In this document: positions 2,727 to 58,002 of the stretch, one piece after another | How the letters are laid out: each line of letters begins with the position of its first letter | Numbering within the stretch: the first letter of the stretch is position 1 | NCBI GenBank assembly: GCA_964372495.1 | Contig: CAYJQU010000001.1 | Span: 2,935-66,934, forward strand | Reading direction: 5' to 3' | Length of the DNA stretch: 64,000 nucleotides | Origin: an uncultured Gammaproteobacteria bacterium | GTDB lineage: Bacteria; Patescibacteriota; Microgenomatia; JAUYPR01 | The notes under the pieces: generated by a model | Seen by the model: only the letters and a program-made list of their open reading frames with translations | Database searches by the model: none | What the model was told of the DNA's origin: nothing | Translations under genes and position numbers: made by a program

Positions 2727-3631
2727 CTGTTATTATTCCGACGTTTAACGGGAAAGAACTTTTAGCAAAAAATCTTCCTCGTATAGTCAAAGCTTCCTCT
2801 GGTGCAGTGGTGATCGTGGTAGACGATGGGAGCACTGATGGCACAGGCCACTGGCTCTCCCAATACTTTCCGAAAGTCGGGATTATTACCCATGCGCGTA
2901 ATCATGGTTTTGCAGCTGCAGTGAACGCAGGAGTGCAAGCTGCCACAACGGATATAGTGGTACTACTCAATAATGATGCGATACCTCACGAGGGGTGGCT
3001 AAAGGCGCTGTCAAGACATTTTGATGACCCATATGTCTTTGCGGTTGGGTGCAGGGAGGAAACAGGCGACGGAGAGAAACGGGTCGTAAGTGGTCGAGGA
3101 GTAGGATACTTTTATCGAGGAACTCTGACGCACGCGCGAGGTATAGAAGGACCCTTCACCCTGTGGGCAAGCGGTGGAAGTGCAGCTTTCTCACGGAGGA
3201 AATGGCGCGAACTGGGCGGAATGGATACACTGTACGCGCCGTTTTACTGGGAGGACATTGATCTCTCCTATCGGGCCTGGAAGAGAGGATGGAGAGTCCT
3301 GTATGAAAAACGAGCGATTGTGACACATGTACATGAGCAGACTATTGGACGCAGGTATTCGCCGTTTTTTATCCGGGTGGTTTCGAGTCGTAATCTCTAT
3401 CTCTTCTTCTGGAAGAATATTACAGACATACGGTTATGGGTGGCGCATCTGACGTGGCTCCCGCTCCACTTGAGTGCGGCGCTTCGGAGGCGGGATGGGG
3501 CATATATCGTAGGATTTCTCTGGGCATGCTGGTATATACCTCTGGTGTGCGTTCGTCGACTGGGAATAGCAAAAGCGACGCGAAGCGACCAGGAAGTAAT
3601 CACACTACATCGTAAGCAAGAGGTTCGATGA
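2723..3631 (+). CDS. Glycosyltransferase family 2 (WbbL/rhamnosyltransferase-like)
   Basis: MTVIIPTFNGKELL...VVDDGSTDGT and the DAIPHEGW and YWEDIDLSYRAWKRG motifs. The ATG overlaps the upstream stop (ATGA). The ORF-track N-terminal extension (2585) would overlap the upstream gene, so it was not used. Confidence 0.8.
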   Translation: MTVIIPTFNGKELLAKNLPRIVKASSGAVVIVVDDGSTDGTGHWLSQYFPKVGIITHARNHGFAAAVNAGVQAATTDIVVLLNNDAIPHEGWLKALSRHFDDPYVFAVGCREETGDGEKRVVSGRGVGYFYRGTLTHARGIEGPFTLWASGGSAAFSRRKWRELGGMDTLYAPFYWEDIDLSYRAWKRGWRVLYEKRAIVTHVHEQTIGRRYSPFFIRVVSSRNLYLFFWKNITDIRLWVAHLTWLPLHLSAALRRRDGAYIVGFLWACWYIPLVCVRRLGIAKATRSDQEVITLHRKQEVR

Positions 3632-6952: not shown

Positions 6953-8619
6953 GGTACGCGACACTTTGGCTGGTGGGCATTACGATGCTGGGAGCACTCG
7001 TGCGCCTTGCCTACCTTGGGGAGATACCTGCAGGGATAAACAATGATGAGGTGTCGCATGGCTACAATGCGTACAGTATTCTGACCACAGGGAAAGATGA
7101 GTGGGGTAAACCGTGGCCTATAACATCGTTTACCGCATTTGGCGATTACAAACCGCCGGTCTATATTTACCTCACGACAGTTTGGGTTTGGCTATTTGGT
7201 CTTTCTTCTTTTTCAACACGCCTTACATCGGCTCTGGCAGGCATCATTGCAATTCCCCTCGTATTTCTTCTTGTACAGAGGTTCTATGGCAACCGCGTGG
7301 TCGCTTTTATTGCAGCATTGTTTCTGGCGATTTCTCCCTACCATGTCTTTATAAGTCGCAAGGCTGCTGAAAACAACCTTGCGATAACATGGGCACTTGT
7401 GGGTACTTATGCGTTTGCTCGAGCACAAAAGCACGTGGCTTGGCTGTTTGCATCTATGGGGTTTTTCTTACTGATGGCATTTACGCACACCCCTGCTCGT
7501 GGCTTTGCCTTGTTGCTAGTTGCCTGTTTGCTTGTTTTGTATGGTAGGCCACTTTTTGTCCGAGAGAAGTGGAAAATGCTTGTCGCGGTGTCTCTTTTTT
7601 TCCTTCCCACGCTTTCTCTGTTTGCAAGCTGGGAGGGGCAGGCCAGATTGTATCAGAGTACGGAGTATGTTACTCGGGGCCTCTATGCTCGGTTGGATGA
7701 AACACGAGCTGCTTGCCAAAGCTTCGCTCCCCCTTCTGTTTGCCAAATTGCATTTAATAGGCCGACCGCCCGCGTGTGGGATGTACTGGAGAACTACGTA
7801 TCCCACTTTAGTACGAGAACGCTGTTTGTTATTGGTATTCGTAAGTTTGATGCTGGTGATTTGCGCGAACTTGATACGTATGTGTTATCAGGACATGGAC
7901 TATTTTATCTTTTTGGCTTGCCGCTGTTCTTCCTTGGCCTCTACTGCCTGGCACGACAGCTGACAAAGAAAAAAGGGCTGTTTTTGGCCTGGCTTTTGCT
8001 GTCTCCTATCCCTGACAGCTTAACTAGCCCAGGACATGCTAGTCGTATGACAACAATGATCCCCTCGATCGAGATTATCTGCGCGATTGGCTTATGGCAG
8101 TTGTCTGTTTGGATACGATATGTGCGTTTGAAAGCGCTACAGTATGTAGTATATTGTGTACTTGCGGCAGTAGTGGCTGTTAGTGTAACTCGTTTTTTAA
8201 TCACCTACCGCCATTACAGCGATTATGCCTCACGCGCGTTTAAGTTTGGCTACGCCGAGTTGTTTCAATATCTTTCAAACGTAGAGGATCGATATAATCG
8301 AATTTGGATATCCTCGTACTATGGGGAACCGTACATCTACCATCTCTTTTTTCAGCGCTACGCGGCAGACAAAATACATGATACGTCACATATTGACCGT
8401 GTCTGGGTTGCTGATGATCAAGCAGGCGTTTGGTCGCAGGTTTCTCGTATTGGCAAGTACCGGTATGTTTCAGAAGTGGAAGCAAAGGATGTAGGTCTGT
8501 CTGACTTGGTTGTAAATGGCCCGTTTGGTGGTCCGAGGGACGGCAATCTTTTACATGTGGTGCGCGATAAACGTGGCGACGGTGTATTCTATATTTATGA
8601 AGCAAAGCAACGAAACTAA
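6949..8619 (+). CDS. PMT_2/ArnT-like GT-C membrane glycosyltransferase, paralog 3
   Basis: 556 aa. NNDEVSHGYNAYSILTTGKDEWGKPWPITSFTAFGDYKPP and SPYHVFISR. GTG start overlapping the upstream stop (GTGA). Confidence 0.75.
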   Translation: MRYATLWLVGITMLGALVRLAYLGEIPAGINNDEVSHGYNAYSILTTGKDEWGKPWPITSFTAFGDYKPPVYIYLTTVWVWLFGLSSFSTRLTSALAGIIAIPLVFLLVQRFYGNRVVAFIAALFLAISPYHVFISRKAAENNLAITWALVGTYAFARAQKHVAWLFASMGFFLLMAFTHTPARGFALLLVACLLVLYGRPLFVREKWKMLVAVSLFFLPTLSLFASWEGQARLYQSTEYVTRGLYARLDETRAACQSFAPPSVCQIAFNRPTARVWDVLENYVSHFSTRTLFVIGIRKFDAGDLRELDTYVLSGHGLFYLFGLPLFFLGLYCLARQLTKKKGLFLAWLLLSPIPDSLTSPGHASRMTTMIPSIEIICAIGLWQLSVWIRYVRLKALQYVVYCVLAAVVAVSVTRFLITYRHYSDYASRAFKFGYAELFQYLSNVEDRYNRIWISSYYGEPYIYHLFFQRYAADKIHDTSHIDRVWVADDQAGVWSQVSRIGKYRYVSEVEAKDVGLSDLVVNGPFGGPRDGNLLHVVRDKRGDGVFYIYEAKQRN

Positions 8620-9316
8620 CAAGCGGACAGTATCGTTGGTATTTCCGGCATTTAACGAGGAGGCCAATATTGCCCAGGCGATTGCCGAGTTTAAGAGGGC
8701 CCATCGGTTTGACGAAGTTGTAGTAGTCGATAATAACTCAACGGATGCAACGGTAAAGCTTGCGCAAGCGCATGCCCGAGTTATGAAGGAGGAGAGACAA
8801 GGATTTGGGTGGGCGGTACGTCGAGGGCTGGCTGAGGCGCGAAGTGAGCTTATTGTCCTTGCCGAACCGGACGGCACATTTGTTGGGAGAGACGTGCATA
8901 AGCTGTTGGCGTACGCGGACGATTTTGACCTGATAATTGGGACGCGCACTACAAAGGAGCTTATTTGGGGGGAGGCGAATATGGGATGGTTCTTGCGAAT
9001 TGGAAATATAATAGTTGCCAAGTTCATTGAGGTATTGTTTTCCGGTCCCTCGCTATCAGATTGTGGTTGCACGCTGCGCCTTATTAGGCGGGACGCTCTT
9101 GGCAAAATAGCACCATATTTTACTGTGGGAGGGTCGCATTTTCTTCCTGAGATGGTGATACTGGCTCTTCAGCATAACTTGCGGGTAATCGAGATACCAG
9201 TTAACTACCGCACGAGGATAGGCGCTTCAAAAATTACTGGTTCCACCTGGCGCGCGTTTTGGGTTGGTATAGGTATGATTACCCTTGCACTCCGTTGCAG
9301 GCTATTTGGCAGATGA
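8597..9316 (+). CDS. GT2 polyprenyl-phosphate sugar synthase (Dpm1/DPM-synthase-like)
   Basis: MKQSNETNKRTVSLVFPAFNEEANI...VVVDNNSTDAT...AEPDGT. This is the typical Dpm1/ArnC/GtrB architecture. The in-frame ATG at 8597 overlaps the upstream gene by about 23 nt. Confidence 0.7.
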   Translation: MKQSNETNKRTVSLVFPAFNEEANIAQAIAEFKRAHRFDEVVVVDNNSTDATVKLAQAHARVMKEERQGFGWAVRRGLAEARSELIVLAEPDGTFVGRDVHKLLAYADDFDLIIGTRTTKELIWGEANMGWFLRIGNIIVAKFIEVLFSGPSLSDCGCTLRLIRRDALGKIAPYFTVGGSHFLPEMVILALQHNLRVIEIPVNYRTRIGASKITGSTWRAFWVGIGMITLALRCRLFGR

Positions 9317-11991: not shown

Positions 11992-14418
11992 ATGGCTCGG
12001 GAACGTGATGCACTCTGGATTTTCGGATTAATCTTCCTCGTAATCCTTTTCTTCTGGCCGGTGTTTCTGCAGGGCAATGTAGCTATGAATGGTAACAATC
12101 TGATGAGCTCCTTTGTGCCGTGGCGGTATGAAGAGCACCAGGGGCGAGCGGCCGCTCCATTTGCCAAGCCCGGCATGCTCGATCAATTGCGTTTGTATAT
12201 TCCGTACCTCACCTTTATGCAACGGGAGTTCCGGGCTGGCAGCATTCCCTTGTGGAATCCACACAATTTCTCAGGTACTCCTCTGGTGGCCGAGCTGCAA
12301 TCTGCTGTGTTTTACCCAACCAATATACTACTACTCTTTCTCTCGGTTCCTAACTACTGGAATACGCTTATTATACTCGGATACATCTTAGCGGTTATTT
12401 TTACCTATCTTTATGTCCGTTCGTTGAATCTTGGGCCACCGTTTGCCGCATTTTCTGCAGTGGTATTTGCGTTTTCAAGCTTTATGGTGGCGTGGAGCCA
12501 AGAGGTACTCATGGCAATACATTCGATTGCGTGGCTACCATTGCTTCTGCTTGCCACGGATAGATTCTTAGCGCGTCAGGACCGAAAGTGGTGGGCCGTA
12601 TTCGTTTTTGGATGTACAATGTCATTACTGTCCGGGTATCTCCAAACGAGCCTCTACGTGTTTCTATTTGTGTTCGCATATATGCTGTGGCGGTCTCGGC
12701 GTGGCGGCTTTCGGCTGGGCGTCTTACTCATGTTTGGGATGATGATAGCAGTAGTTGTCAATGCATTGCAGTTTTTACCTGCGCATGAGTTGTATGCACT
12801 TTCGTCACGTAAAATAGTTGATGTGCGTTCCATGTTATCGCACTATCTTCTACAAGTTCCCTGGCTTATCACGTACGTCTTCCCTGATTTTTTTGGACAT
12901 CCAACAACGAGAAATGAAACGCTGTCGTTTGTTGGGACATACTATGAACGTGCGCTCAGCATAGGCACGCTACCAGTTCTGCTTGCATTATTTGCTGTAG
13001 TAACCCGCAAAAAATCTAAGAATCCACGCATTGTTGGTTGGTATGGATTCCTCTGGTTGATTACCCTTTCGCTTTCTTTGCAACTGCCCCTATCGTATCT
13101 TCTTTTTCATCTCGATGTTCCATTCTTTGCAACAGGGATTAGCAACCGCATTCTCTTTTTATCAGCCTTTTGCGGCAGTGTCTTAGGGGCATACGGTCTG
13201 CATGCGGTAGCTAACCAGAAGAGCAAAGCTTTATGGATAACGTTACTTTTTATTCCCTTGTGCTTGGGGATATTCATATGGTGGTATTCTCCGACAACGG
13301 AGCTCCCTAGTATTCGTCGTGATTGGCTTCTTGTTGCAAGAAGGAATGTGATTGTACCAATAGGCCTTGTTATGATCGCGCTTGCCGCGACAGTTCTCTT
13401 TCGGAAACGCATTGGCGCTGCAGTAACTTTACTCTTAATACTGACTCTATTGCAGATCTATTACGGATTTGCCAAATTTATGCCGTTTGCCGACCGGCGG
13501 TATTTCTATCCAACTCACCCCGTGATTGAAGCAATTTTTCAACGTACTGCTTCTTCCTACGAGCGATTTTGGGGATATGGTGGATCGACTTTTGACTATC
13601 CCGGCGCATATATTGAGAATAACTTGGCTACCTCGTTTGGTATTTATGCTGCCGAAGGCTACGATTCTCTCCATGATCATCGGTATGGTCAGTTACTCTT
13701 TGCGGCCTCTAACGGGAGGGTACAAACCAATTTGTCTCGTTCAGATGCGGTGCTGGAACGAGCTCCTGATGTGAACCGTACCTTTACCGCACAAACGAAC
13801 CGTCTTCGCCTGCTTGAACTCCTGGGCGTACGATACATTATCGACCGCGATGAGGAGGCGCCCCGTGCCTCATATCAGGATCCAAAGCGATTTGATAGTA
13901 AAATGTTTGCTAAAGTGTGGCAAGAAGACCTGTGGCGCATCTTTGAGTTTCAGCGAGCCCTTCCACGGGCGTGGTTAGTAGGGAAGGTTTTTATAGCGAG
14001 CTCGGATCAGGAAGTTGTTGACAGGATTCTCGATACTTCGTTTGACCTGCGCAAAACAGTTGTGGTGCAAGAGCCGCTGACTGGAGATACGCTTGCGGAA
14101 TCTGCGGTAGGCAGTGCTCGCATAACTCAGTATCAATCCAGAAGAGTGGTGATCGAGACAGTTGCTGACGCAACCCAGCTTTTAGTGCTGACCGACACCT
14201 TTTTTCCGGGATGGAAAGCGCACGTGGACGGTTTGCAGGTCAAGATATATCGCACTAATTTTGCATTCCGCGGTGTTGTGGTGCCAGGAGGCACTCACAC
14301 GGTGGTTTTTTCTTATGAACCCGAGTCCTTTGAGCGAGGAAAAGAGTTTACTCTACTAGGTGTGGTACTTTTCGCCGTTACATATATCGGCTTACCGAAA
14401 ATAGAGAGAAAGAGATGA
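11992..14418 (+). CDS. YfhO-family polytopic membrane protein, paralog 2
   Basis: LWNPHNFSGTPLVAELQSAVFYP and the C-terminal TDTFFPGWKAHVDGLQV...VVFSYEP. The alternative GTG start at 11971 is possible. Confidence 0.8.
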   Translation: MARERDALWIFGLIFLVILFFWPVFLQGNVAMNGNNLMSSFVPWRYEEHQGRAAAPFAKPGMLDQLRLYIPYLTFMQREFRAGSIPLWNPHNFSGTPLVAELQSAVFYPTNILLLFLSVPNYWNTLIILGYILAVIFTYLYVRSLNLGPPFAAFSAVVFAFSSFMVAWSQEVLMAIHSIAWLPLLLLATDRFLARQDRKWWAVFVFGCTMSLLSGYLQTSLYVFLFVFAYMLWRSRRGGFRLGVLLMFGMMIAVVVNALQFLPAHELYALSSRKIVDVRSMLSHYLLQVPWLITYVFPDFFGHPTTRNETLSFVGTYYERALSIGTLPVLLALFAVVTRKKSKNPRIVGWYGFLWLITLSLSLQLPLSYLLFHLDVPFFATGISNRILFLSAFCGSVLGAYGLHAVANQKSKALWITLLFIPLCLGIFIWWYSPTTELPSIRRDWLLVARRNVIVPIGLVMIALAATVLFRKRIGAAVTLLLILTLLQIYYGFAKFMPFADRRYFYPTHPVIEAIFQRTASSYERFWGYGGSTFDYPGAYIENNLATSFGIYAAEGYDSLHDHRYGQLLFAASNGRVQTNLSRSDAVLERAPDVNRTFTAQTNRLRLLELLGVRYIIDRDEEAPRASYQDPKRFDSKMFAKVWQEDLWRIFEFQRALPRAWLVGKVFIASSDQEVVDRILDTSFDLRKTVVVQEPLTGDTLAESAVGSARITQYQSRRVVIETVADATQLLVLTDTFFPGWKAHVDGLQVKIYRTNFAFRGVVVPGGTHTVVFSYEPESFERGKEFTLLGVVLFAVTYIGLPKIERKR

Positions 14419-16787
14419 TGAGGAAACTGCTGCCATTTGTTGCTTTCGTTGTATATACGCTTATTCTTTTTCGTCCGCTTTTCTTGCAAGGAAAAGTACC
14501 CATGCCAGCAGACGCGCTCGTATCAGGATACTTTCCCTGGAACGCAAGTGGTTGGGAGGGAGCCCAATATGGAATACCCCGCGCTGAAATCATTGCGACC
14601 GACGTGTTCCGGCAACAACTTCCCTGGATAGATCTAACGGTGGCGGAATTAAGACAGGGAAGACTGCCGCTTTGGAATCCATATAATTTTACCGGAATGC
14701 CACTTATGGCAAATCTCCAGTCGCACGTGTGGTTTCCCTGGACGCTTGCATTTGTGCTCTTGCCGCTTACTACCGCATGGACGGCTTTTGTAGTGAGTGT
14801 TCCGATAGTTGGGATGATCGGTATGTACCTCTGGTTGCGAACACGTGCTCTGAGCAAGATTGCCTCGGTATTCGGCGGTATTGCGTTTTCTTCGATGAGT
14901 TTTATAGTACTTTGGCTTCCCTGGGGCTTTATTCCGTATGGCGCGGTACTCTTGCCGTGGATATTGTGGGCAAGCGAGCGAGTACTATCACGTAAACCAT
15001 ATGGTGCAACGATTCTATCAATATTTCTTACGCTGGAGTTGCTTAGCGGTTATATGCAAATTGTCATCTATACGCTGCTGTTTGTGTTGGCATATATCTT
15101 GTGGCGACTATGGCCACGTCTGACGTGGCCATGGCAGGTTCCATGGAAAGAACGATGGGGTTTCTTAGTGAAAGTTAGTTGTTGTGGTGTTGTAGCGCTC
15201 CTGCTTTCTGCCGTGCAGCTTGTCCCTTCGTTTGAAGCCTATCTGCTTTCTGCCAGAGAAGTTTCGGCCTCAACGGCGCTGTTTTACGACTATCTTCTTC
15301 CCCCAAAACATCTTATCACCGCCATTGCTCCTCATTTTTTTGGCAATCCCCAGACGTTTAATTTTTGGGGAGAGCAGCACCAGGAATACATGAGCTACAT
15401 CGGGATAGTTGCATTAATACTGGCTGTCTATCGCCTGATGAGCGCCTTCCGTGAGTCAACTGTGCGTTTTTTTGGTGCGGCGGCGCTGCTTGCACTACTT
15501 TTTGCAATGGTCGAACCGGTAGCATCGCTTCTGGTAGCCCTTAAGATTCCCATTCTTAGCTCTGGTATACCATCGCGTACTTTGTTTCTTGTTCAGACGA
15601 GTATGATTGTGCTTGCTGCCGAGGGGCTGGACGGTCTTAAAGCAGTGCGACGCACGCCCTTGTACGGTACAGTAGTAACTGTGAGCCTGGCATACTTCCT
15701 CGTTGCGCTCGGGGCGTATCTACTGCAAATGCGTGGCCGCCTGATTGCCGCAGATCTAGCACTCGGCCTGTCTAGCTTACGGCTGCCGTCTCTCATATTT
15801 TTACTAGCAGGCGGATTACTCGTTACGACCCTCTATAAACCGCGCTTTCGTTACGCGGTAGGCGTGCTACTTGTTGTTCTTGGGATATTTGAGTACGCAC
15901 GATTTTTTGGACAAAATGTGGCATTTTCGCAAAAGGAGCATGTGTATCCTCCCCATCCAGTTATTGAATGGTTGCAAGCGCGGCCAGGTCATTATCGCCA
16001 TTGGGGTTATGATGAAGCACGTTTTGATCACAACTTTGCAACGTACTACCGTCTCTTTTCTGCAGAGGGCTTCGATTCGCTGTATCCTAAGCGCTATGGA
16101 GAACTCCTCGCATCGGCGCGCAATGGGAGGGTGCCTGCCGAAATCCTTCGGTCCGATGCAGTGATTCCATGGGAGGACACAAAAGGAAGGCGACGATTAT
16201 TTGATTTACTGAGTATACGGTACGTCTTAGCTAGAACTGACCGCGGAGATACAAGTCTTGCTGTGAAATACAAAAGCTTAGGGCGACAGCCGCTCGCTCA
16301 GTTCGGCAACGCGCTGGTATATGAAAATGAGTCTGCCCTCCCACGAACGTATCTGGTCGCTCAGTTCCGGGTGGTGCCTGATCAAGAAGCAAGTATAAAG
16401 ACTCTCTTTGGCGAGGATTTTGATCCGAAGAGGGAAATTGTTCTTGCCAAACGCCCGTCGATCGCAGTTGATTCCGGAAGTGCGAGCGGTTCGGCAAGTA
16501 TTCTCCGATATGAACCTGGAGTGGTAGAAATTAAAGCGAATGCACCTGGCCCATCGCTTCTGGTTTTGAACGACCAATACTATCCAGGCTGGAAAGCGTA
16601 TGTTGATGAAATGGAGCAAGAAATTCTCAGGGCAAACGAGGTATTTCGAGCAGTTGCACTTTCGGCCGGGCAACATGCGGTAGTGTTTCGATATGATCCG
16701 CCCAGTGTGCGTATTGGCTTGGCTGTAAGCATGGTCGGCATCGTACTTCTTGCTGGTGTTGCGCTGGCTGATCGCAGGCATGTCTAA
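14415..16787 (+). CDS. YfhO-family polytopic membrane protein, paralog 3
   Basis: 790 aa. LWNPYNFTGMPLMANLQSHVWFP and the C-terminal NDQYYPGWKAYVDEME...VVFRYDP. ATGA overlap. Confidence 0.8.
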   Translation: MMRKLLPFVAFVVYTLILFRPLFLQGKVPMPADALVSGYFPWNASGWEGAQYGIPRAEIIATDVFRQQLPWIDLTVAELRQGRLPLWNPYNFTGMPLMANLQSHVWFPWTLAFVLLPLTTAWTAFVVSVPIVGMIGMYLWLRTRALSKIASVFGGIAFSSMSFIVLWLPWGFIPYGAVLLPWILWASERVLSRKPYGATILSIFLTLELLSGYMQIVIYTLLFVLAYILWRLWPRLTWPWQVPWKERWGFLVKVSCCGVVALLLSAVQLVPSFEAYLLSAREVSASTALFYDYLLPPKHLITAIAPHFFGNPQTFNFWGEQHQEYMSYIGIVALILAVYRLMSAFRESTVRFFGAAALLALLFAMVEPVASLLVALKIPILSSGIPSRTLFLVQTSMIVLAAEGLDGLKAVRRTPLYGTVVTVSLAYFLVALGAYLLQMRGRLIAADLALGLSSLRLPSLIFLLAGGLLVTTLYKPRFRYAVGVLLVVLGIFEYARFFGQNVAFSQKEHVYPPHPVIEWLQARPGHYRHWGYDEARFDHNFATYYRLFSAEGFDSLYPKRYGELLASARNGRVPAEILRSDAVIPWEDTKGRRRLFDLLSIRYVLARTDRGDTSLAVKYKSLGRQPLAQFGNALVYENESALPRTYLVAQFRVVPDQEASIKTLFGEDFDPKREIVLAKRPSIAVDSGSASGSASILRYEPGVVEIKANAPGPSLLVLNDQYYPGWKAYVDEMEQEILRANEVFRAVALSAGQHAVVFRYDPPSVRIGLAVSMVGIVLLAGVALADRRHV

Positions 16788-19260
16788 CCTACTATCCGAA
16801 AAAGTCCTTCCGGTTATTGCCTTCGTTGCTACGTTTCTTCTATTTTTTTACCCTATTCTTTTTGGCAACGTAGCCTTTAACGGTCCTGCTCTTGTTTCGC
16901 TATATACCCCGTTTATGTTTGAGGAGTATGAGGGGTACCCTGCTGGGGTGCCGAGTATGCAGGGGATGAGCGATCAAATTAAGCTGTACGTTCCGTACCT
17001 GCGATTTACGCGTGACCAGTGGCGCGCTGGGCAGATACCATTATGGAACCCTCATAACTTCTCCGGCACGCCGCACCTTGCAGAATGGCAGTCAGCGGTG
17101 TTCTATCCGCTCATACTACTCGGCTCAGCAATTTCTCTTGTGAACATGTGGCATGTATTAGTCATAACCGGTTTTGTGTTCTGCAGCGTTTTTACCTACT
17201 GGTATCTTCGGACACTTACGCTGTCTCGATTCTCCTCGTTTATTGGTGCACTCTCCTTTGGTGCTGGTTCTGTGGTGGTGCGATGGTCGCAGGAGATTGT
17301 TATGGCTCCACACGCGGTTGCGATGTTACCGCTGTTGCTTATCGGCATAGACAAGTGGATCAAGACAAGACAGTTTCGGTGGTGGCTATTGGGGCTGCTT
17401 GCAGCAACTAACGCACTGCTTTCTGGTTACTTGCAAGTTGCACTGTATGTATTCACTGCGAGCGTTGTCTATCTTGGCTATCGACTGTGGTCATGCGAGG
17501 GTAAGTGGTTGAGAGGTTTGCAGTGGCTGGTAGTGTATGTATGCGCCATAGGCCTCACTGCATGGCAAGTATTGCCTGGCTTCGAGCTGTTTTTGGAGTC
17601 TTCGCGACGTGTGGTTGATATACGATCGCTCCTTTCCCAGTATCTGCTTTCCTGGCAGTTTCTTGTGAATATTCTCATTCCAGATTTTTTTGGTCATCCA
17701 TTGACTCAGAATGAGTACGGATTTGAGATCGGATCGTTCTATGAACGGCCGTTATGGGTCGGCACGCTATCAGTCATAGGGATCGTCATATGGTGGGTGC
17801 ATAGACGGAACATAGGTAGCGATCCTGTGTTTTGGATTGTAGTCGGTTTGCTGTCGCTCAGTATAGTGTTTGCGTTACCAACCTCACGCTTGTTTTATAT
17901 GACCAGGACGCCGTTTTTCTCTGATGCCATCCCTCATAGAATATTGTTTTTACCGTCATTCGCATGGGTGGTTGTTGGGGGAATGGGGCTTGATTGGTGG
18001 TTAAAGCACACTTCTGTTCGAACAATACTTAAAACATCCCTTGTATTCTTTGTATTTTTCCTACTTGTTTTTTTGGTAGTACAGAGTGTGCGGCTGCTAG
18101 GTCTCTCGGTTGCGGATTGGCCTGCATCGGCGGTGTGGACACAGGTTGCACTGCGCAACAGCGTTTTGCCACTACTATTTTTCGCTACGTTCGTGTCTCT
18201 GCTTTTGATTTGGGCGATTGCCGGATGGGTTGCAACGTTACGTCTTCTCGTGCCCACGCTCGTGTTTGGTACTAGAGTGAGAAAAGTGGCGCTTTTCTTG
18301 ATTGCAACGTTTGTTATTTTTGAGCTATGGCTATCGTTTCGAAAATTTACTGTATTTTCGCCGCCTCAGTTTTTCTACCCCAATCCGCTCTTTGTATGGT
18401 TGCAGCAAAATGCTGGCATCGAGCGATTTTGGGGGTATGGGGACGCGTTCGTACCGAACAATCTTGCAACGTATTATGGCCTGTATACCCCGGAAGGATA
18501 CGACTCGCTCAATTCGCATCGATATGCACAACTGCTCCTCAGCATGGAGACGGGGCGGCTTGATAGGCCGGTGTCTCGGTCTGACGCCGGTATGTTGCGA
18601 GCCCCGGATGGTCTTTATGCACTACACGAGCACCCAAGGAGGCTGCGGCTCATGGGAATGCTGAATGTTCGGTACTTTCTTGATAAAGAAGGGGAGATAA
18701 AAACATCTCCGTTTAACGAAAAGAATCGATTTCAGAGTACCGATTTCGAGCTAGCCTGGACGGATGGAAAGTGGAGAATTTTTCGTTTCCCTGGTGCGTA
18801 CCCGCGTGCGTATATGGTTTCTCACTTTGTTGTTGAGAAAGACGACCAAGCTATACTTGATCGATTGTACGATCCATCATTCTCTCCAAGAGATACTGTG
18901 GTGCTGGAAGAAGAACCTCCTGGACATTTGCAGCCTGACATACAAGCAACAGGTAGAGTGGAAATTTTACGTTATACACCGGATGAAGTTATTGTCAGCA
19001 CAAGCTCAAGCGGCAGACAGTTGTTGCTGCTTGCGGACAATTTTTTCCCTGGATGGGTTTCGAAGGTAGATGGGGCTGAGACACCAATGTACCGCGCAAA
19101 CTTTACCTTTCGAGCAGTGTCAGTACCAGCGGGGGAGCATCAAGTCGTGTTTCGGTATGAACCGCAGCCGTTCCGGAATGGGCTCTATATCTCAGGGGCC
19201 ACGCTACTGTTCGTAGGTATTCTCGGCGTTTCCCACCTCCGTCGCCGACCTATGCGTTGA
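16780..19260 (+). CDS. YfhO-family polytopic membrane protein, paralog 4
   Basis: LWNPHNFSGTPHLAEWQSAVFYP and the C-terminal ADNFFPGWVSKVDGAE...VVFRYEP. The internal ATG at 16780 overlaps the upstream stop by 8 nt. Confidence 0.8.
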   Translation: MSNLLSEKVLPVIAFVATFLLFFYPILFGNVAFNGPALVSLYTPFMFEEYEGYPAGVPSMQGMSDQIKLYVPYLRFTRDQWRAGQIPLWNPHNFSGTPHLAEWQSAVFYPLILLGSAISLVNMWHVLVITGFVFCSVFTYWYLRTLTLSRFSSFIGALSFGAGSVVVRWSQEIVMAPHAVAMLPLLLIGIDKWIKTRQFRWWLLGLLAATNALLSGYLQVALYVFTASVVYLGYRLWSCEGKWLRGLQWLVVYVCAIGLTAWQVLPGFELFLESSRRVVDIRSLLSQYLLSWQFLVNILIPDFFGHPLTQNEYGFEIGSFYERPLWVGTLSVIGIVIWWVHRRNIGSDPVFWIVVGLLSLSIVFALPTSRLFYMTRTPFFSDAIPHRILFLPSFAWVVVGGMGLDWWLKHTSVRTILKTSLVFFVFFLLVFLVVQSVRLLGLSVADWPASAVWTQVALRNSVLPLLFFATFVSLLLIWAIAGWVATLRLLVPTLVFGTRVRKVALFLIATFVIFELWLSFRKFTVFSPPQFFYPNPLFVWLQQNAGIERFWGYGDAFVPNNLATYYGLYTPEGYDSLNSHRYAQLLLSMETGRLDRPVSRSDAGMLRAPDGLYALHEHPRRLRLMGMLNVRYFLDKEGEIKTSPFNEKNRFQSTDFELAWTDGKWRIFRFPGAYPRAYMVSHFVVEKDDQAILDRLYDPSFSPRDTVVLEEEPPGHLQPDIQATGRVEILRYTPDEVIVSTSSSGRQLLLLADNFFPGWVSKVDGAETPMYRANFTFRAVSVPAGEHQVVFRYEPQPFRNGLYISGATLLFVGILGVSHLRRRPMR

Positions 19261-20654: not shown

Positions 20655-20729
20655 AACAAAATACCTTATGGGTGTAAATATGAACCGTGCGTGTTGCAGG
20701 ACGTATCAGTTTCCTTTACACTTCCCTGG

Positions 20730-22325: not shown

Positions 22326-22327
22326 GT

Positions 22328-23977
22328 ATGAAACCTAGGGCACTACTCTTGCTGACGTGCGTTGTTGTCCTGGCCGCATTTCTCCGTCTGTATCGCCTCG
22401 GCGAGGTACCGGTTAATCTCAACTGGGATGAGGCAGCTAGTGGATACAACGCCTATAGTATATTACTCACTGGAAAAGATGAGTTTGGCCGTTCCTGGCC
22501 AGTATTCTTTGAGTCATTCAATGACTTTAAGCACCCTGGCCTTATTTATTCGATTGTTCCTTCGATTGCACTGTTTGGCCTAACACCTTTTGCAGTGCGG
22601 TTGCCGTCAGTTCTCTACGGTACTCTCACGGTACTGGTGGTGTTTTTCCTTGCTCGGCGTTTACTGAAACACGAAAACGGAGCCCTGCTGAGCTCCTTGC
22701 TGCTTGCGCTTTCGCCATGGCACATCCAAGTAAGCCGAGTGGCATTCGAGCAGATTGGGATGATCTTTTTTGTAGTGCTCGGGGTATGGGTGGTGATGAA
22801 AGCATTTGAGCATCCCCGGTGGTATCCGGCTGCATTTGCGGCACTGGCTGCCTCTTTTTACTTTTACTACAGTGTTCGTCTCTTCCTGCCCTTCTTTGCT
22901 TTGGGGCTGCTGTTTCTTTACCTCAAAACGGTGCGAGAGCATTTCCGCTGGGTTGCGGTGGGCGCGCTCGTTGGTGCCCTTCTGCTTTTACCTCTGACAA
23001 TCCAGGTGCTGTCTCCAAAGGGTATCGTGCGCGCGTCTCAAGTGAGCATCTTTACTGATGAAGGTATCAATCTGCACCAGCGGGAGTGGCGAGCCGAGCA
23101 TGGGTACGGTTTGCTTGGGCGTCTGTTGCATCAGAAGATGACTACCTGGGCTAGCGCTGCCGCTTCTGGTTATGTATCACACTTTTCGCTACCCTTCCTC
23201 TTTTTTGATAATGAGCAGGTAGGGCGACATGCGCCGCGCAGGATGGGTATGATGTATGCTATTGAACTGCCATTTCTCCTCTTGGGCATCTATCATCTGA
23301 TACAGAGAAGACGGAGGGAAAGCCTAGTGCTACTTGCATGGTTCCTTTTGGCGCCAGTGCCTGCGATGTTTGCAATACCGACACCGCATGCGCTACGCGC
23401 GATCTTGATGGTCATCCCGCTTGCCATCTTTGTTGCGTTGGGAATGGTGAAGTTCTACTCCTTTATTGCGAGGAGCAGGCTCTCACTCCTTTCCGTTTTT
23501 CTCTTTGGTATCGTGGGGGTTTGGTCTGTCGGATACTACCTTGATAACTATTACACGCATTCGGCCAAACTCTCCTCACGGGATTGGGCTGACGGCCATA
23601 AGCAACTGTTCGCTTTCGTGTCTCCGATTGTTGATCGCTATGAAAAAGTGGCAATGACTGGTTTCCACTGGAGGCCGTATATCTTTATGCTCTTCTATAT
23701 GAAGGTTGACCCGTCAACCTGGCAGGCACAGTATAATCACGCGCATTTTGGTAAGTGGTACTACGACATTTCAGGCTGGGATACGCAGGATCAGCATTAT
23801 CGCCCTGACTTTAATTGGGATAAGATTATTGAGAGTAGCGGGACGCTTGTTATATTAAGCGAAGAGGAAGCGAGTAAGTTCTTGGATAAGGAAGGACGAC
23901 GTGGAGGTTATCGAATACTTACCAGTATCTATGCGGCCGACGGGAATAAAATGTTTGAGGTGATGGAACAACTATGA
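22328..23977 (+). CDS. PMT_2/ArnT-like GT-C membrane glycosyltransferase, paralog 6
   Basis: NWDEAASGYNAYSILLTGKDEFGRSWPVFFESFNDFKHP and SPWHIQVSR. First ATG in frame; a TTG at 22322 is possible. Confidence 0.75.
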   Translation: MKPRALLLLTCVVVLAAFLRLYRLGEVPVNLNWDEAASGYNAYSILLTGKDEFGRSWPVFFESFNDFKHPGLIYSIVPSIALFGLTPFAVRLPSVLYGTLTVLVVFFLARRLLKHENGALLSSLLLALSPWHIQVSRVAFEQIGMIFFVVLGVWVVMKAFEHPRWYPAAFAALAASFYFYYSVRLFLPFFALGLLFLYLKTVREHFRWVAVGALVGALLLLPLTIQVLSPKGIVRASQVSIFTDEGINLHQREWRAEHGYGLLGRLLHQKMTTWASAAASGYVSHFSLPFLFFDNEQVGRHAPRRMGMMYAIELPFLLLGIYHLIQRRRRESLVLLAWFLLAPVPAMFAIPTPHALRAILMVIPLAIFVALGMVKFYSFIARSRLSLLSVFLFGIVGVWSVGYYLDNYYTHSAKLSSRDWADGHKQLFAFVSPIVDRYEKVAMTGFHWRPYIFMLFYMKVDPSTWQAQYNHAHFGKWYYDISGWDTQDQHYRPDFNWDKIIESSGTLVILSEEEASKFLDKEGRRGGYRILTSIYAADGNKMFEVMEQL

Positions 23978-24693
23978 AAAGGTTAGAGATTCTGGTCCTT
24001 ATTCCGACATACAACGAGAGGGAAAATGTGCCATTACTGGTGCAAGAGGTACTAGGTATCCGAGATGATATCGGCATTGTTATCGTGGATGATAACTCAC
24101 CTGATGGAACCGGCGCTGTCGCTGAGGAGCTGGCGAGGAAATACCCGGATCGTGTGCATGTGATCCACCGCAAAGGAGAACGGGGGAGAGGAACTGCTGG
24201 AGTACGAGGATTCAAGTATATTATTACTCAGCCTGCTACGTTTGCTCTCGAGATGGACGCCGACTTTTCGCACGACCCGAAATACGTACCAGAGTTTTTA
24301 AAGGAGATTGCGTATTATGATGTAGTAGTCGGATCGCGTTTTGTACGAGGTGGCAAGGATGCTCATCGGACTATCCTGCGGCGCATCATGAGTCTCGCTA
24401 GTCGTCTCGTGTACCGAGCCATTCTCGGGCTTCCTCTTACCGACATTGGGAGCGGTTACAAATGTTATCGGATGGAGGTGTTGCGGTCGCTCCCATGGGA
24501 GCGGTTTTACTCGTACGGCATATCGATTAGCATGGAGGAGCTATTCCGTATTGCTCGCAAAGGCTATAGAGTCAAGGAGATTCCAATCGAGTTTTATGAC
24601 CGACGTTCTGGGAAGTCGAAATTAACGTTGTCAGATGCGATAGAGCCAGCTATTGTTGCCGTTCGTTTAGTACTGAGCCTCGGTAGAGCATAA
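23974..24693 (+). CDS. GT2 polyprenyl-phosphate mannose/glucose synthase (Dpm1-like)
   Basis: LVLIPTYNERENV...IVIVDDNSPDGTG...EMDADFSHDP...GSRF. Classic Dpm1/Ppm1 motif order. ATGA overlap. Confidence 0.8.
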   Translation: MKRLEILVLIPTYNERENVPLLVQEVLGIRDDIGIVIVDDNSPDGTGAVAEELARKYPDRVHVIHRKGERGRGTAGVRGFKYIITQPATFALEMDADFSHDPKYVPEFLKEIAYYDVVVGSRFVRGGKDAHRTILRRIMSLASRLVYRAILGLPLTDIGSGYKCYRMEVLRSLPWERFYSYGISISMEELFRIARKGYRVKEIPIEFYDRRSGKSKLTLSDAIEPAIVAVRLVLSLGRA

Positions 24694-24697
24694 ACCG

Positions 24698-26218
24698 CTA
24701 CAGAGGAATATCCGCAGCTATAATCGGCCAGGCAGGTTCGGTTGCGACCGCACGTCCTGGATGCCGGTATCTGAGTTTATAGAGCTTAAGCGAGTCGGTT
24801 ATCACCCACCCATTTTCCACGTCGTAGGGTCCTGGCGCGTACAATTCATTGTATTGAGCGCGCAGCACTTTTTGCAGGGAATTTGCAAGCACATAGATAG
24901 CATCGCTTTGACCAAACCCTTCCGCGCCTAATAAAACAATGCCGTTGATGGTCACAAAATAGCGATACGGATGTGCCAGGATATCGCTGTCTTCCAGTGA
25001 GAGTAAATTCGCCCGCTGTGTCTTGGTTGAGCTTTCTGCTATGTACCGAGCAACCTGTTGCATGCGAGGTAGTGGCACGGTGTCCGGCGTCTTCGTAAGA
25101 TGGTAATGCAAGAAAATCGCTATGCCAAAGGCCCACACGGTAATAAAGAGCGTACGATACATCCGCTCTTTCCAGAAACGACTAACGATCAACATCTGCA
25201 ATAGCCAGAATGAGATCGCGAGCGGTAGCAGGTGGTACGCCTTCGTGTCTTCCTGGCTCAAGAGAGCGAGGAAGGGATACGTCAGAAGCAGCGTTATAAA
25301 GAATGTAAGTACTAGAAACTGCGCGAAGAGATCACCTTTCTTCCATCGGGTAACAAGCAGATAGAGCCCAATACCAAATTGTATAAGAGCTATGGTGGTG
25401 ATAAGCGGCGGAAAGAACGGCGAAACTGTAAGAGCAAGAAAACTGTTGGTATAGTTGTTAATAATAAGATCGCCGGGATGATTTTCCTGATTCTGCAATC
25501 GAGCAAGGATGGTGGTAGAGAAGCTAGTCCAGTGGTAAAACTGATGTCGCAAGTTAAACACAATAAGCGGGGAGAGAGCGAGCAGATACCCAGATGCTAA
25601 AGTGATTAGGTGTGAGAAATGAGTCTGTCGAGTAAGAGCGATCCATAAGATAAAGGTGAGCGGCAGCACTACGATACCACTTATGTGCACATGCAAAATC
25701 ATCCCTGCTAAGAACCCAGCGACAAATACGGCTCTGAGCGCTCGATTTTTGATGGCTTCCCAGAGCGACAGATAGTACAGCGGTACGAGTATCAAAAGTA
25801 ACGCAGGGGGAAACGGTTTGTTGCTGTAGGATACAAAAGCCATGCTTAGGGCAAATGTGAGTGCTGTGATACAGGCCACTTTTACATCAAACAACCGACT
25901 AGCAATGCGCCAAGAGAGAGCAACGCTTACTATCCCTATAAAGACGTTGAGAAGCCCAAGGCTGCGCGGGTCAAACTGCCCTATATACAGCGCTGGCATT
26001 CCTAAGTAGTAGTACAATGGCCCCATAGGTATCCGGAGATTGCTTTGGACGTCGCCGACGAGGGGTATCTTTTTAATCTGTAGAAGGGTATACAGCTCGT
26101 TTGTTATTCTGCTCTCGTCGACCATAAAGGGCATGTGGGTTGGCAGGTCGGCCAGTCGAACAAGGATTGCGATGGCAATAATTCCTACTAAAGTGAGTGT
26201 ATTTGTAAAATGATTCAT
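24698..26218 (-). CDS. Polytopic membrane protein, GT-C-like (ArnT/PMT-like topology)
   Basis: Start taken at MNHFTNTL (TM follows). Loop motif FMVDESRITNELY (DE). Many TM segments. The upstream 63 codons of the ORF track lack TM character and were not used. Confidence 0.55.
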   Translation of the reverse strand: MNHFTNTLTLVGIIAIAILVRLADLPTHMPFMVDESRITNELYTLLQIKKIPLVGDVQSNLRIPMGPLYYYLGMPALYIGQFDPRSLGLLNVFIGIVSVALSWRIASRLFDVKVACITALTFALSMAFVSYSNKPFPPALLLILVPLYYLSLWEAIKNRALRAVFVAGFLAGMILHVHISGIVVLPLTFILWIALTRQTHFSHLITLASGYLLALSPLIVFNLRHQFYHWTSFSTTILARLQNQENHPGDLIINNYTNSFLALTVSPFFPPLITTIALIQFGIGLYLLVTRWKKGDLFAQFLVLTFFITLLLTYPFLALLSQEDTKAYHLLPLAISFWLLQMLIVSRFWKERMYRTLFITVWAFGIAIFLHYHLTKTPDTVPLPRMQQVARYIAESSTKTQRANLLSLEDSDILAHPYRYFVTINGIVLLGAEGFGQSDAIYVLANSLQKVLRAQYNELYAPGPYDVENGWVITDSLKLYKLRYRHPGRAVATEPAWPIIAADIPL

Positions 26219-27910
26219 GTGCAAAAACAACAGGCAGTAGCGCTGGCATTGGTAATTCTTTCCTCGCTCATTGCGTTGCTGCCCTATTTTAGCAGAGGAA
26301 TTCCGCGTACGTATGACTCCTATCATCGCCTCAGCCGAGCGGCAAAGTATTACGTGGCCTTGCACCAACACCAAATTCCACCACGCTGGATAGGGACTGT
26401 GGACCACGGGGTAGGAAGCCCGATTTTCGGTTATTTGTATCCTTTGGGTTACGTAATTACTGCTCTGTTACATATGGGTGGAGTGACGCTTATAGACGCT
26501 ATGCGCTTCTTGTATATTGCGGGATTTATGGCCTCTGGACTTACTATGTATTTGTTTCTCAGGACCCAGTTTAGTACTCTTGCCTCACTCACCGGCGCGT
26601 TGCTATATCAGTGGGCCCCCTACAGAACGGTACAGCTCTATGTGCGAGGTGCCCCTGAAGAAATCATCGGGTACGCGCTAGTGCCTCTTATATTCCTGTC
26701 CCTCTATCGCATATATCGGGATCAAAAACATGCTTGGTTTGTATGTGGTTTGCTGATGGGTTTACTTATTCTTACAATCGGGACGGTTACCGTTCTCTTT
26801 ATGCCCCTCCTCGTCAGTTTCGTTGTGGGGTTAACTATTCTATTTCGCAAGCTAGCATACATAAGGCAGTTTACAAAATCAGTAGTGCTCGCGGTTGCTA
26901 TCGGATCGATTATTCTCATACCTTACTTTTTTGAACGATCTCTTATCCAACTTAATAATGTCTATGCTGTATACAAAGATAATTTTATATCTCTTACCTC
27001 CCTTATTCATGCTCGATGGACCTTTGTTCCTACACCCCAGGAGCTTGGAAAACCTCACCTGTTGGTTTTGGCATTGAGCGCCTACATTATATTTAAGCGG
27101 CGTATTGCATCTGTCTTCCTTCGCTATCTTTTTATTATGCTCATTGCATGGGCGGTGCTATATCTGCTCTTGGCAGTCGATAATCCATTCACCCGTACAA
27201 TGTGGCAGCATGCTTCATTTCTCAAGGTGGTTTATGTTCCTACCTTACTGTTAGGGCCCTTGGTATTTTTTACAAGTACACTCGCCGCTTTCTTAATCTC
27301 GCTACTGCGCTACAGAGTGTTACTCAGTACTGTGCTCGTATGGTCAGCATTAGTCCTCAATATCTCGGCAGTAAAGGCTGAGTCCTATATGTATGAGCAT
27401 GACGCGAATTTGTATTCACTCAATGGCACTACGGCAGGGTTTGATGAGTTTCTTCCTGTCGCCGCGCGCAAATTCGGAGACTTTTTCATCCAGGCTGAGG
27501 CCCTCACGCCTGTATTGGGGTCACTTCAATACACGATACTGCAACAGAGGTATCACAGTTGGATAGTATCGTTCAATGCTGCTAGCGATGACCGGCTCAT
27601 TATTCATCAACTCTATTTTCCAGGGTGGCGTGCACGTATTGACGGTCGTGCGGTTCCGCTTGGCTACACGATGCCCTCAAAGGACGAAGCGGTAGCAAAG
27701 AAAACGCTTGATCAGGGACTTATGGTGGTATCTATACCACGCGGTGTCCATACGCTGACCCTTGAGTACAAAGGTACGCTCGGCCAGAAAGCTGGGGAAT
27801 TGATTACGGGTTTGGGATTAGTTTTTATTGCAGGGTATGGTCTTGTACACCGCGACTATATCTGGAGACACATTCGTAAGCGAGATGCACGCAGTAACAC
27901 TTTGGTGTAG
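26210..27910 (+). CDS. Divergent YfhO-like polytopic membrane protein
   Basis: 566 aa. N-terminal YDSYHRLSRAAKYY...PPRWIGTVDHGVGSP is shared with the 40347(-) and 54844(-) genes. C-terminal LYFPGWRARIDGRAVP matches the YfhO C-terminal motif. Confidence 0.6.
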   Translation: MIHVQKQQAVALALVILSSLIALLPYFSRGIPRTYDSYHRLSRAAKYYVALHQHQIPPRWIGTVDHGVGSPIFGYLYPLGYVITALLHMGGVTLIDAMRFLYIAGFMASGLTMYLFLRTQFSTLASLTGALLYQWAPYRTVQLYVRGAPEEIIGYALVPLIFLSLYRIYRDQKHAWFVCGLLMGLLILTIGTVTVLFMPLLVSFVVGLTILFRKLAYIRQFTKSVVLAVAIGSIILIPYFFERSLIQLNNVYAVYKDNFISLTSLIHARWTFVPTPQELGKPHLLVLALSAYIIFKRRIASVFLRYLFIMLIAWAVLYLLLAVDNPFTRTMWQHASFLKVVYVPTLLLGPLVFFTSTLAAFLISLLRYRVLLSTVLVWSALVLNISAVKAESYMYEHDANLYSLNGTTAGFDEFLPVAARKFGDFFIQAEALTPVLGSLQYTILQQRYHSWIVSFNAASDDRLIIHQLYFPGWRARIDGRAVPLGYTMPSKDEAVAKKTLDQGLMVVSIPRGVHTLTLEYKGTLGQKAGELITGLGLVFIAGYGLVHRDYIWRHIRKRDARSNTLV

Positions 27911-28536: not shown

Positions 28537-28542
28537 AGGCGT

Positions 28543-29250: not shown

Positions 29251-29251
29251 G

Positions 29252-30259: not shown

Positions 30260-30260
30260 T

Positions 30261-54005: not shown

Positions 54006-54025
54006 GAGCCAATTGTATCAAATTT

Positions 54026-56454: not shown

Positions 56455-56460
56455 GTTCTA

Positions 56461-57996: not shown

Positions 57997-58002
57997 GTCT
58001 CT

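Follow-up and report, generated by a model that had tools for sequence, protein, structure and literature searches.

INTRODUCTION

Mycobacteria build extracytoplasmic glycans from polyprenyl-phosphate sugars, as illustrated by the PpgS/Rv3779 pair and by the AftD and Emb arabinosyltransferases. The YfhO family (PF09586) includes YfhO of Bacillus subtilis and Staphylococcus aureus, which add N-acetylglucosamine (GlcNAc) to lipoteichoic acid (LTA), Lmo1079 of Listeria monocytogenes, which adds GlcNAc to wall teichoic acid (WTA), and the streptococcal proteins PgtC2 and PgfM1, which function in protein O-glycosylation. YfhO is the glycosyltransferase of the GT-C superfamily in systems of the CsbB-GtcA-YfhO type that act on LTA and WTA, and the characterized members use monosaccharide-phosphate donors (PMC8035078). 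PgtC2 and PgfM1, which form the pairs GtrB-PgtC2 and PgfS-PgfM1, O-glycosylate Ser/Thr-rich protein regions (PMC12041528). The glycosylation of LTA or WTA, the role considered in a sequence-only reading of the DNA analyzed here, does not cover the full known scope of the family. PF10131 (PTPS_related), a family of the GT-C clan CL0111, is listed with unknown function (PMC7801869). Here, we report on a stretch of 64,000 nucleotides of contig CAYJQU010000001.1 from an uncultured bacterium, referred to in its entirety as the window. It contains four long YfhO genes (591, 11992, 14415, and 16780, named according to their lowest coordinate) and three genes encoding shorter, divergent proteins (26210, 40347, and 54844, termed the trio), and we present evidence that the latter are compact relatives of YfhO.

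RESULTS

Compact proteins with full-length homology to YfhO

The trio is composed of gene 26210 (26210..27910, plus strand; 566 amino acids), gene 40347 (40347..41933, minus strand; 528 amino acids), and gene 54844 (54844..56454, minus strand; 536 amino acids), and the mutual sequence identity of their products is 26 to 27%. None of the three was matched by PF09586 at an E value of ≤0.01, and for this reason they are not filed as YfhO. In a deep profile-profile comparison with hhalign (26 versus 27 sequences), the trio and YfhO profiles were aligned with a probability of 99.87% and an E value of 1.5e-31 over 510 of 528 columns. This alignment extends from end to end, since residues 1 to 524 of the trio correspond to residues 2 to 789 of YfhO, and it places the trio segment EGQ.PPRW..GYG.P onto the YfhO segment G..PLWNPY.F.G.P. 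Two segments are extra in YfhO, namely, some 40 residues (PW...TD..Q..PW) inserted into the first loop and a stretch of ~260 residues that corresponds to roughly three helices and an ectodomain, where the trio shows a gap. When thin profiles were used, only the membrane core was aligned (95% probability; E value of 3.5e-8), and the match of the trio profile with the eleven PMT_2-type GT-Cs of the window reached only an E value of 2.7e-10 over 185 columns. Judging from these profiles, the trio is homologous to YfhO over its full length.

The C-terminal tails were also compared separately, using the last 170 to 190 residues of 28 YfhO-type and 14 trio-type sequences, and were aligned with a probability of 98.9% and an E value of 1.9e-17 over 94 columns. 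The tails of the trio furthermore showed weak matches to positions 758 to 828 of the 835 positions of the YfhO Pfam profile (E values of 0.008 to 0.1; 11 to 15 bits), including the C terminus of 26210, which matched the end of the profile with an E value of 0.008. All seven proteins end with a PGW beta-sandwich (FGW in gene 591) and a terminal membrane helix, and both the motif and the terminal helix were absent from all 11 PMT_2-like GT-C paralogs in the window. The tail comparison, together with this absence, rules out that the PGW motif is a coincidence, and we consider that the PGW tails of trio and YfhO, as compared at the profile level, are homologous. The sequence-only reading had described the trio as a second, divergent group that keeps the [FY].PGW motif, and the alignment and the tail comparison bear this out.

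PF10131 and the size of the compact family

Of the trio proteins, 40347 (E value of 2e-15; 56.8 bits) and 54844 (E value of 2.6e-7; 30.0 bits) passed the PF10131 gathering cutoff of 26.4 bits (whole-protein score). The remaining protein, 26210, was matched directly by no Pfam and no NCBIfam model; it scored 534 bits with our own hidden Markov model (HMM), and among its 17 homologs in the database, 11 contain PF10131. These matches, two direct and the third through homologs, rule out that the trio forms a wholly undescribed family. The suggestion of an undescribed YfhO-related subfamily was hence right as to the relationship (E value of 1.5e-31; 510 columns) but not as to its novelty, PF10131 having already been catalogued. 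As a refuting outcome, the sequence-only reading had named a match of the trio to a different characterized family, with the PGW motif being coincidental; this applies only by half, since another catalogued family is indeed matched, yet it is uncharacterized and the motif is homologous. The PF10131 matches were confined to positions 1 to 300 of the 621 profile positions, covering 5 to 299, and no NCBIfam model matched any of the trio proteins. Since the available matches cover half of the profile, 26210 has no Pfam match, and NCBIfam is silent on all three proteins, existing family models cover the compact family poorly.

When the trio and its homologs were combined into a search profile, it matched 51,394 clusters at an E value of ≤1e-3 and 10,362 clusters at ≤1e-30, counted as 50%-identity cluster representatives. 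Among the best 150 clusters listed, most had ~530 to 660 residues and were matched over the full profile length. More than 10,000 clusters and end-to-end matches argue against a local oddity; as far as profile matches can tell, the trio family is large, widespread, and constant in its compact architecture. In some giant relatives (P0150-P0153, P0165, and P0172), the trio profile was matched over its full length several times, for example, in P0151 with 3,329 amino acids and 6 stretches and in P0153 with 1,670 amino acids and 4 stretches. Such proteins are either GT-Cs fused naturally in tandem or the result of gene calls that were merged.

Four long YfhO genes

All seven open reading frames (ORFs) named in the sequence-only reading were found at their coordinates, and its assignment of four of them to YfhO was confirmed by a Pfam search of the window ORFs, with PF09586 E values from 1e-18 to 9e-29. 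YfhO paralog 1 (591..2726; 711 amino acids; E value of 3.4e-20, 72.5 bits), paralog 2 (11992..14418; 808 amino acids from ATG 11992; 3.7e-28, 98.8 bits), paralog 3 (14415..16787; 790 amino acids; 9e-29, 100.9 bits), and paralog 4 (16780..19260; 826 amino acids; 1.2e-18, 67.4 bits) are all located on the plus strand, and all four exceeded the PF09586 gathering cutoff (67 to 101 bits versus 28.5 bits, whole-protein score). Paralogs 2 to 4 form a tandem with overlapping stops and starts, as had been noted before: the start of paralog 3 overlaps the stop of paralog 2 in the ATGA at positions 14415-14418, and ATG 16780 overlaps the TAA of paralog 3 (16785-16787) by 8 nucleotides. The longest ORFs begin at GTG 11971 for paralog 2 and at TTG 16750 for paralog 4. 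The evidence favors ATG 11992 and ATG 16780 as the starts, because a GAGGA is found 5 nucleotides upstream of ATG 11992 and because paralog 4 from 16780 corresponds to the 826-amino-acid gene call on the near-identical contig L001.

In an alignment of the four proteins, in which identity to the first YfhO protein was 30 to 33%, P84-L85-W86-N87-P88, F91, G93, and P95 were invariant and correspond to the motif LWNP.NF[ST]G.P, within the invariant block IPLWNP..F.G.P. The C-terminal block [FY][FY]PGW.A.VDG...YR.N..FR.V.VP.G.H.VVF.YEP, also read as [FY][FY]PGW.A.VDG...FR.V.VP.G.H.V.F.Y.P, was found in the three tandem genes, whereas in gene 591 FGW replaces PGW and the ectodomain is shorter by about 50 residues. 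Both motifs had been proposed as common features of the four genes, which is correct for the LWNP block in all of them but holds for the C-terminal block only in the tandem genes. Paralog 2 is closest within the window to paralog 4 (39% identity), and a homolog of paralog 3 from elsewhere (P0030) shares 55 to 56% identity with it, more than any in-window paralog. With a mutual identity of 30 to 39%, the YfhO paralogs of the window are old.

In the four long genes, a large alpha/beta ectodomain separates the core from the PGW domain; it is absent from the trio. Conservation among the YfhO paralogs varied along the sequence; best conserved were the first loop (36 to 58% identity) and the PGW sandwich (36 to 49%), and least conserved were the ectodomain (22 to 41%) and the extra helices (13 to 27%). 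This pattern would fit a PGW domain with a conserved role in the mechanism and a more variable, possibly acceptor-facing ectodomain. The NCBIfam models for PgfM1 and PgfM2 matched only the C-terminal ~60 to 95 residues of the window YfhOs. Seven YfhO homologs of ~1240 to 1380 amino acids (P0058, P0072, P0077, P0083, P0091, P0092, and P0100) are fused to Wzx/MATE-type export domains (PF01943, PF13440, and PF01554). Such a fusion of a GT-C with a flippase, as deduced from domain matches, would fit a flippase-dependent mechanism.

Conserved residues of the trio family

Motifs common to the trio are H..R, PPRW or VPVRW, G.G.P, and [FY].PGW..R.[DN]G, and the invariant positions in the trio alignment are R59/W60, G67, G69, P71, and P471-G472-W473. 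A conservation table was established from 120 sequences of the trio family (numbering according to 40347). Positions conserved at 84 to 100% were H31, D32, R55, W56, G63, G65, P67, P133, Y134, R142, E147, P155, P230, E234, G273, W316, P328-W329-R330, P456-G457-W458, G486, T497, and R500. Among them, the charged residues D32, R55, R142, E147, E234, and R330 were 90 to 97% conserved and are retained in the window copies, with the exception of 26210, where L replaces R330. The window copies also hold most of the other conserved positions, with deviations in single paralogs such as Q31 in 40347 and S74 in 54844; in 26210, Y replaces H31 and H replaces G50. D32 (90% conserved) follows directly after helix 1, and YfhO contains a nearly invariant D63; these two positions do not align. 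The above charged residues of the trio and D63 of YfhO are candidate catalytic residues, and an acidic residue after helix 1 together with several arginines would suit the needs of a GT-C that binds a lipid phosphate.

Structure predictions

The AlphaFold2 model of 40347 (predicted local distance difference test [pLDDT] score of 81; predicted template modeling [pTM] score of 0.86) consists of a helical membrane core, a beta-sandwich at residues ~417 to 494, and a final helix at 498 to 527. The model of 14415 (pLDDT of 89.4; pTM of 0.91) contains a core, extra helices at residues 416 to 501, a mixed alpha/beta domain at about 515 to 690, a beta-sandwich at 693 to 760, and a final helix at 763 to 789. 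A Foldseek search of the PDB with the trio model retrieved AglB (3waj and 3wak), STT3, PglB, ArnT, and AftD with a probability of 1.00 and E values of 2e-3 to 3e-2, and the YfhO model retrieved AftD (1.9e-6) and ArnT (1.7e-5). Both models, then, end in a beta-sandwich and a terminal helix and both match GT-C structures, in line with the relationship that had been suggested from sequence motifs. A sequence search of the PDB with both family profiles resulted in no match at an E value of ≤1 and thus revealed no solved structure for either YfhO or PF10131. Short secondary Foldseek matches of the trio model corresponded to beta-sandwich domains of GH30, GH5, and amylases; this model-based hint that the PGW domain might be a carbohydrate-associated module is only a lead.

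Gene content of the window

The window encodes 18 GT-C enzymes, namely, 4 YfhO proteins, 3 of the PF10131 type, and 11 of the PMT/PMT_2 type (one TMEM260-like), and their summed gene lengths of about 31.4 kb make up 49% of the window. The count of seven YfhO-type proteins in this locus given by the sequence-only reading is correct for one branch, but the GT-C total is much higher. The GT-Cs are accompanied by eight small GT2 genes, six methyltransferase genes, a nucleotide-heptose pathway, amino-sugar genes, and about ten GT4 genes, one of which is truncated by the start of the window. The whole window is one glycan locus with an unusual density of GT-C genes.

Every trio gene adjoins a PMT_2-type GT-C gene (24698, minus strand, for 26210; 38913 for 40347; and 56461 for 54844). 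Gene 40347 is a lone minus-strand gene, the 3' end of which overlaps that of the convergent PMT_2 gene at 38913-40394 (plus strand) by 48 nucleotides, and its start is 14 bp away from a divergent PMT gene at 41948. The minus-strand operon that includes gene 54844 also encodes a GT2, a PMT_2/TMEM260-like GT-C, a methyltransferase, a short-chain dehydrogenase/reductase (SDR), and a DegT aminotransferase. The PMT_2/TMEM260-like gene (56461..57996, minus strand; PF11028 E value of 2.1e-4; 408 bits with our own PMT_2 HMM) is located directly upstream of 54844, and the operon is headed by a small GT2 gene (58003..58692, minus strand; PF00535) that is DPhHxTase-like (6.3e-10).

Other GT2 genes also accompany GT-C genes. 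Directly 3' of YfhO paralog 1 is a GT2 gene (2585..3631, plus strand; PF00535 E value of 1.8e-27) with one C-terminal transmembrane segment predicted from hydropathy, which is followed by three consecutive PMT/PMT_2-type genes identified with Pfam (3628-5316, 5303-6952, and 6949-8619, plus strand) that lack the PGW tail. A small GT2 (8516..9316, plus strand; PF00535) is a candidate polyprenyl-phosphate-sugar synthase on the basis of its similarity to AglJ (2e-23) and to dolichyl-phosphate hexose transferase (2.8e-20), both below the cutoffs. A second candidate of this type (23974..24693, plus strand; PF00535), devoid of a transmembrane segment, resembles AglJ (4.1e-19), DPhHxTase (1.1e-18), and PpgS (2.2e-15), all below the NCBIfam cutoffs, and is flanked by PMT_2-type genes at 20691-22325 and 22322-23977 (plus strand) and at 24698-26134 (minus strand), as supported by Pfam and by the gene calls in L001. 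The small GT2 at 35749..36423 (plus strand) is similar over its full length to the polyprenyl-phospho-GalNAc synthase PpgS (NF058614; E value of 2.4e-45), with a score of 154.7 bits versus a cutoff of 370. Overall, four small GT2s resemble AglJ, DPhHxTase, or PpgS; most of them have no membrane segment, and they adjoin GT-C genes.

Five genes directly 3' of 26210 (27928..31563, plus strand; Pfam) form a nucleotide-heptose set in the order SIS/GmhA-like, nucleotidyltransferase, HddA-like kinase, HAD phosphatase, and second nucleotidyltransferase (HddC-like). HddA (E value of 3.5e-72) and the HddC-like match (1.8e-26) were both below the cutoffs. The set resembles the GDP-D-glycero-D-manno-heptose pathway. 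The segment at 51693-58692 (minus strand) encodes a DegT aminotransferase, an SDR dehydratase, a methyltransferase, two GT-Cs, and a small GT2, and a formyltransferase gene and a polysaccharide-deacetylase-family gene are located at 62299-63983 (minus strand). The genes in these two segments may recall the logic of the lipid-linked aminoarabinose (Arn) modification by ArnA-D/T.

Two proteins of the window stand apart. The 441-amino-acid product of 19329-20654 (minus strand) has ~12 hydrophobic segments and no Pfam or NCBIfam match. It was considered as a flippase or GT-C and set aside, given only a weak PMT_2-like signal in the comparison with the PMT_2 group of the window (69.5% probability; E value of 4.2e-5; 208 columns); according to this profile comparison, it could represent one more divergent GT-C or a glycan enzyme of the membrane of another kind. 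The 631-amino-acid product of 59612-61507 (plus strand), which is encoded between methyltransferase genes and for which hydropathy predicts no transmembrane segment, had no match in Pfam or NCBIfam, even at lenient thresholds.

Related loci in other genomes

Seven related loci in other genomes were searched with HMMs built from the window's own protein groups. Trio-type genes occurred together with PMT_2-type and small GT2 genes in 7/7 of these loci, and a YfhO-type gene was present in 3/7; with the same mix in all of them, the mixed cluster is a recurring design. Five loci (L002, L003, L004, L007, and L008), two of which contain YfhO, come from metagenome-assembled genomes (MAGs) labeled uncultured Gammaproteobacteria or Pseudomonadales, and L005, with the same mixed cluster, comes from a Candidatus Gottesmanbacteria MAG. 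Either the mixed cluster is phylogenetically broad or those MAG labels are unreliable. The best named homologs of the window proteins belong to unclassified "bacterium" MAGs and to the Patescibacteria group; the proteins themselves are also encoded on Logan contigs of run ERR3478686. A literature search on YfhO in the Patescibacteria and in the Candidate Phyla Radiation returned nothing relevant.

DISCUSSION

Starting from the homology, fold, and gene neighborhood reported above, we infer a donor type, a membrane side, catalytic residues, and acceptors for the seven proteins. With a probability of about 75%, they represent two related architectures of one GT-C branch that would transfer polyprenyl-phosphate-linked sugars outside the membrane. 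In the YfhO layout, a multi-helix core with a long first outer loop containing LWNP would be followed by some three further helices, the alpha/beta ectodomain, the PGW beta-sandwich, and the last helix. The trio layout would combine the core, with PPRW as the counterpart of LWNP, with the PGW beta-sandwich and the last helix, and would dispense with part of the first loop, the extra helices, and the ectodomain. According to the mechanism that we propose, (i) the small cytoplasmic GT2s of the locus would load single sugars onto polyprenyl phosphate, (ii) a flippase encoded outside the window would turn the lipid-linked sugar outward, and (iii) each GT-C would move the sugar, at the external face of the membrane, onto a surface glycopolymer or a Ser/Thr-rich protein. 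By analogy with characterized YfhO members, YfhO and the trio most likely transfer sugars from polyprenyl-phosphate carriers to surface glycans or proteins. It is plausible that the seven enzymes have several acceptor or donor specificities, as the sequence-only reading had proposed.

A number of observations weigh against this proposal. (i) All resemblances of the GT2s to polyprenyl-phosphate sugar synthases are below the NCBIfam cutoffs. (ii) There was no Pfam match to a GtrA/GtcA- or Wzx-type flippase among the window ORFs, the largest gap being 362 bp; the flippase may be encoded elsewhere on the 208-kb contig. (iii) Against solved GT-Cs, the trio model gave weak Foldseek E values, 2e-3 at best. 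(iv) 26210 lacks P-W-R, which is 93 to 95% conserved in the family, and reads P-T-L instead, so that its activity or specificity may have changed. (v) The position aligned with D32 of the trio is conserved in no more than 2 of the 4 YfhOs of the window, and D63 of YfhO aligns with a variable trio position; the acid of the first loop hence differs between both groups, and the catalytic geometry may differ as well. (vi) Our literature search found no paper that characterizes any PF10131 member.

A more far-reaching version of this proposal is that the compact PGW family constitutes a functionally distinct GT-C class, perhaps part of an outer-face assembly line with YfhO and PMT_2 proteins, in which the ~18 GT-Cs would build, or extensively remodel, a complex surface glycan containing heptose, amino sugars, and methylated residues, using polyprenyl-phosphate monosaccharides outside the cytoplasm. 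We regard this version as tentative and rather doubtful. If true, it could be likened to the synthesis of arabinan in mycobacteria or to the lumenal ALG steps, but in an uncultured and possibly Patescibacteria-related bacterium.

The fold matches alone would also accommodate a different reaction. AglB, STT3, and PglB are the top structural matches of the trio model, and the GT4 genes of the locus, at least eight in number, along with several GT2 genes that are not Ppm-like, could assemble a lipid-linked oligosaccharide, so that the trio might resemble oligosaccharyltransferases, ligases, or polymerases and transfer en bloc, from polyprenyl-pyrophosphate, a glycan prebuilt by cytoplasmic GT4 and GT2 enzymes. 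However, ArnT and AftD score alike with similarly weak E values (2e-3 or worse), the sequence profiles find no oligosaccharyltransferase in the PDB at an E value of ≤1, and the trio has no STT3 Pfam match. The homology to YfhO is far stronger and extends over the full length, and characterized YfhOs use monosaccharide-phosphate donors (PMC8035078). En bloc transfer by the trio is therefore improbable. About equally improbable is that the trio proteins are catalytically inactive or accessory, acting, for example, as acceptor-binding or scaffold partners of the adjoining PMT_2-type GT-Cs. Such partners are found next to every trio gene, a review speculates that small GT-Cs may need a second protein for acceptor recognition (PMC8035078), and the loss of P-W-R in 26210 would agree with this idea, but D32, R55, R142, E147, and E234 are kept in all three trio proteins, and the constant architecture seen across more than 10,000 clusters fits a conserved enzymatic role. 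Finally, a link of the trio to pterin metabolism, for which only the PF10131 name ("6-pyruvoyl-tetrahydropterin synthase-related") and the NCBI product names of the homologs P0012 and P0014 speak, is effectively refuted by the restriction of the profile match to its membrane half with no catalytic domain of that synthase detected, by the GT-C fold, by the placement of PF10131 in the GT-C clan (PMC7801869), and by a neighborhood entirely devoted to glycan biosynthesis.

Lipid-linked sugar transfer by both architectures thus remains our preferred explanation, and it has consequences for annotation. Proteins named "6-pyruvoyl-tetrahydropterin synthase-related" or hypothetical turn out to be compact full-length relatives of YfhO, and, by analogy, compact proteins of the PF10131 type are best read as probable lipid-phosphate-sugar-dependent glycosyltransferases. 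The PGW beta-sandwich and the terminal helix mark the YfhO/PF10131 branch within the GT-C superfamily. The fact that about half of a 64-kb stretch is devoted to 18 GT-Cs points to an unusually elaborate capacity for extracytoplasmic glycosylation in an uncultured bacterium. This is a refinement of annotation, not a new kind of system, and current understanding is not overturned; what is gained is this refinement, together with the description of a locus that is exceptionally dense in GT-C genes.

Comparison with known systems

The four long genes resemble the YfhO family in the LWNP motif, the GT-C fold, the ectodomain, the PGW beta-sandwich, and the terminal helix, and the GT2 enzymes near them recall the CsbB/YfhO pairs. 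Unlike in characterized YfhO systems, there are four copies within 19 kb, three of them translationally coupled, without a nearby GtcA-type flippase, and the host is an uncultured bacterium instead of one of the characterized Firmicute hosts. The trio shares with PF10131 a match that covers the GT-C membrane core, two proteins passing the cutoff and the third being connected by its homologs, whereas its C-terminal half is YfhO-like (PGW domain) and the model fails to detect one paralog and several homologs. Similarities to ArnT/PMT_2 (GT83/GT39-like) are the superfamily fold, with ArnT among the structural matches of both models, and the same presumed donor chemistry, and eleven PMT_2-type genes share the locus with the trio and the YfhOs. 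In contrast to ArnT/PMT_2, the trio is closer to YfhO by profile, and the PMT_2 paralogs have neither PGW domain nor terminal helix. As for the mycobacterial system, lineage and envelope differ and the window genes show no sequence-level membership, whereas the PpgS-like GT2 at 35749-36423 adjoins GT-C genes, AftD is the best structural match of the YfhO model, and in both cases many GT-C enzymes serve one envelope.

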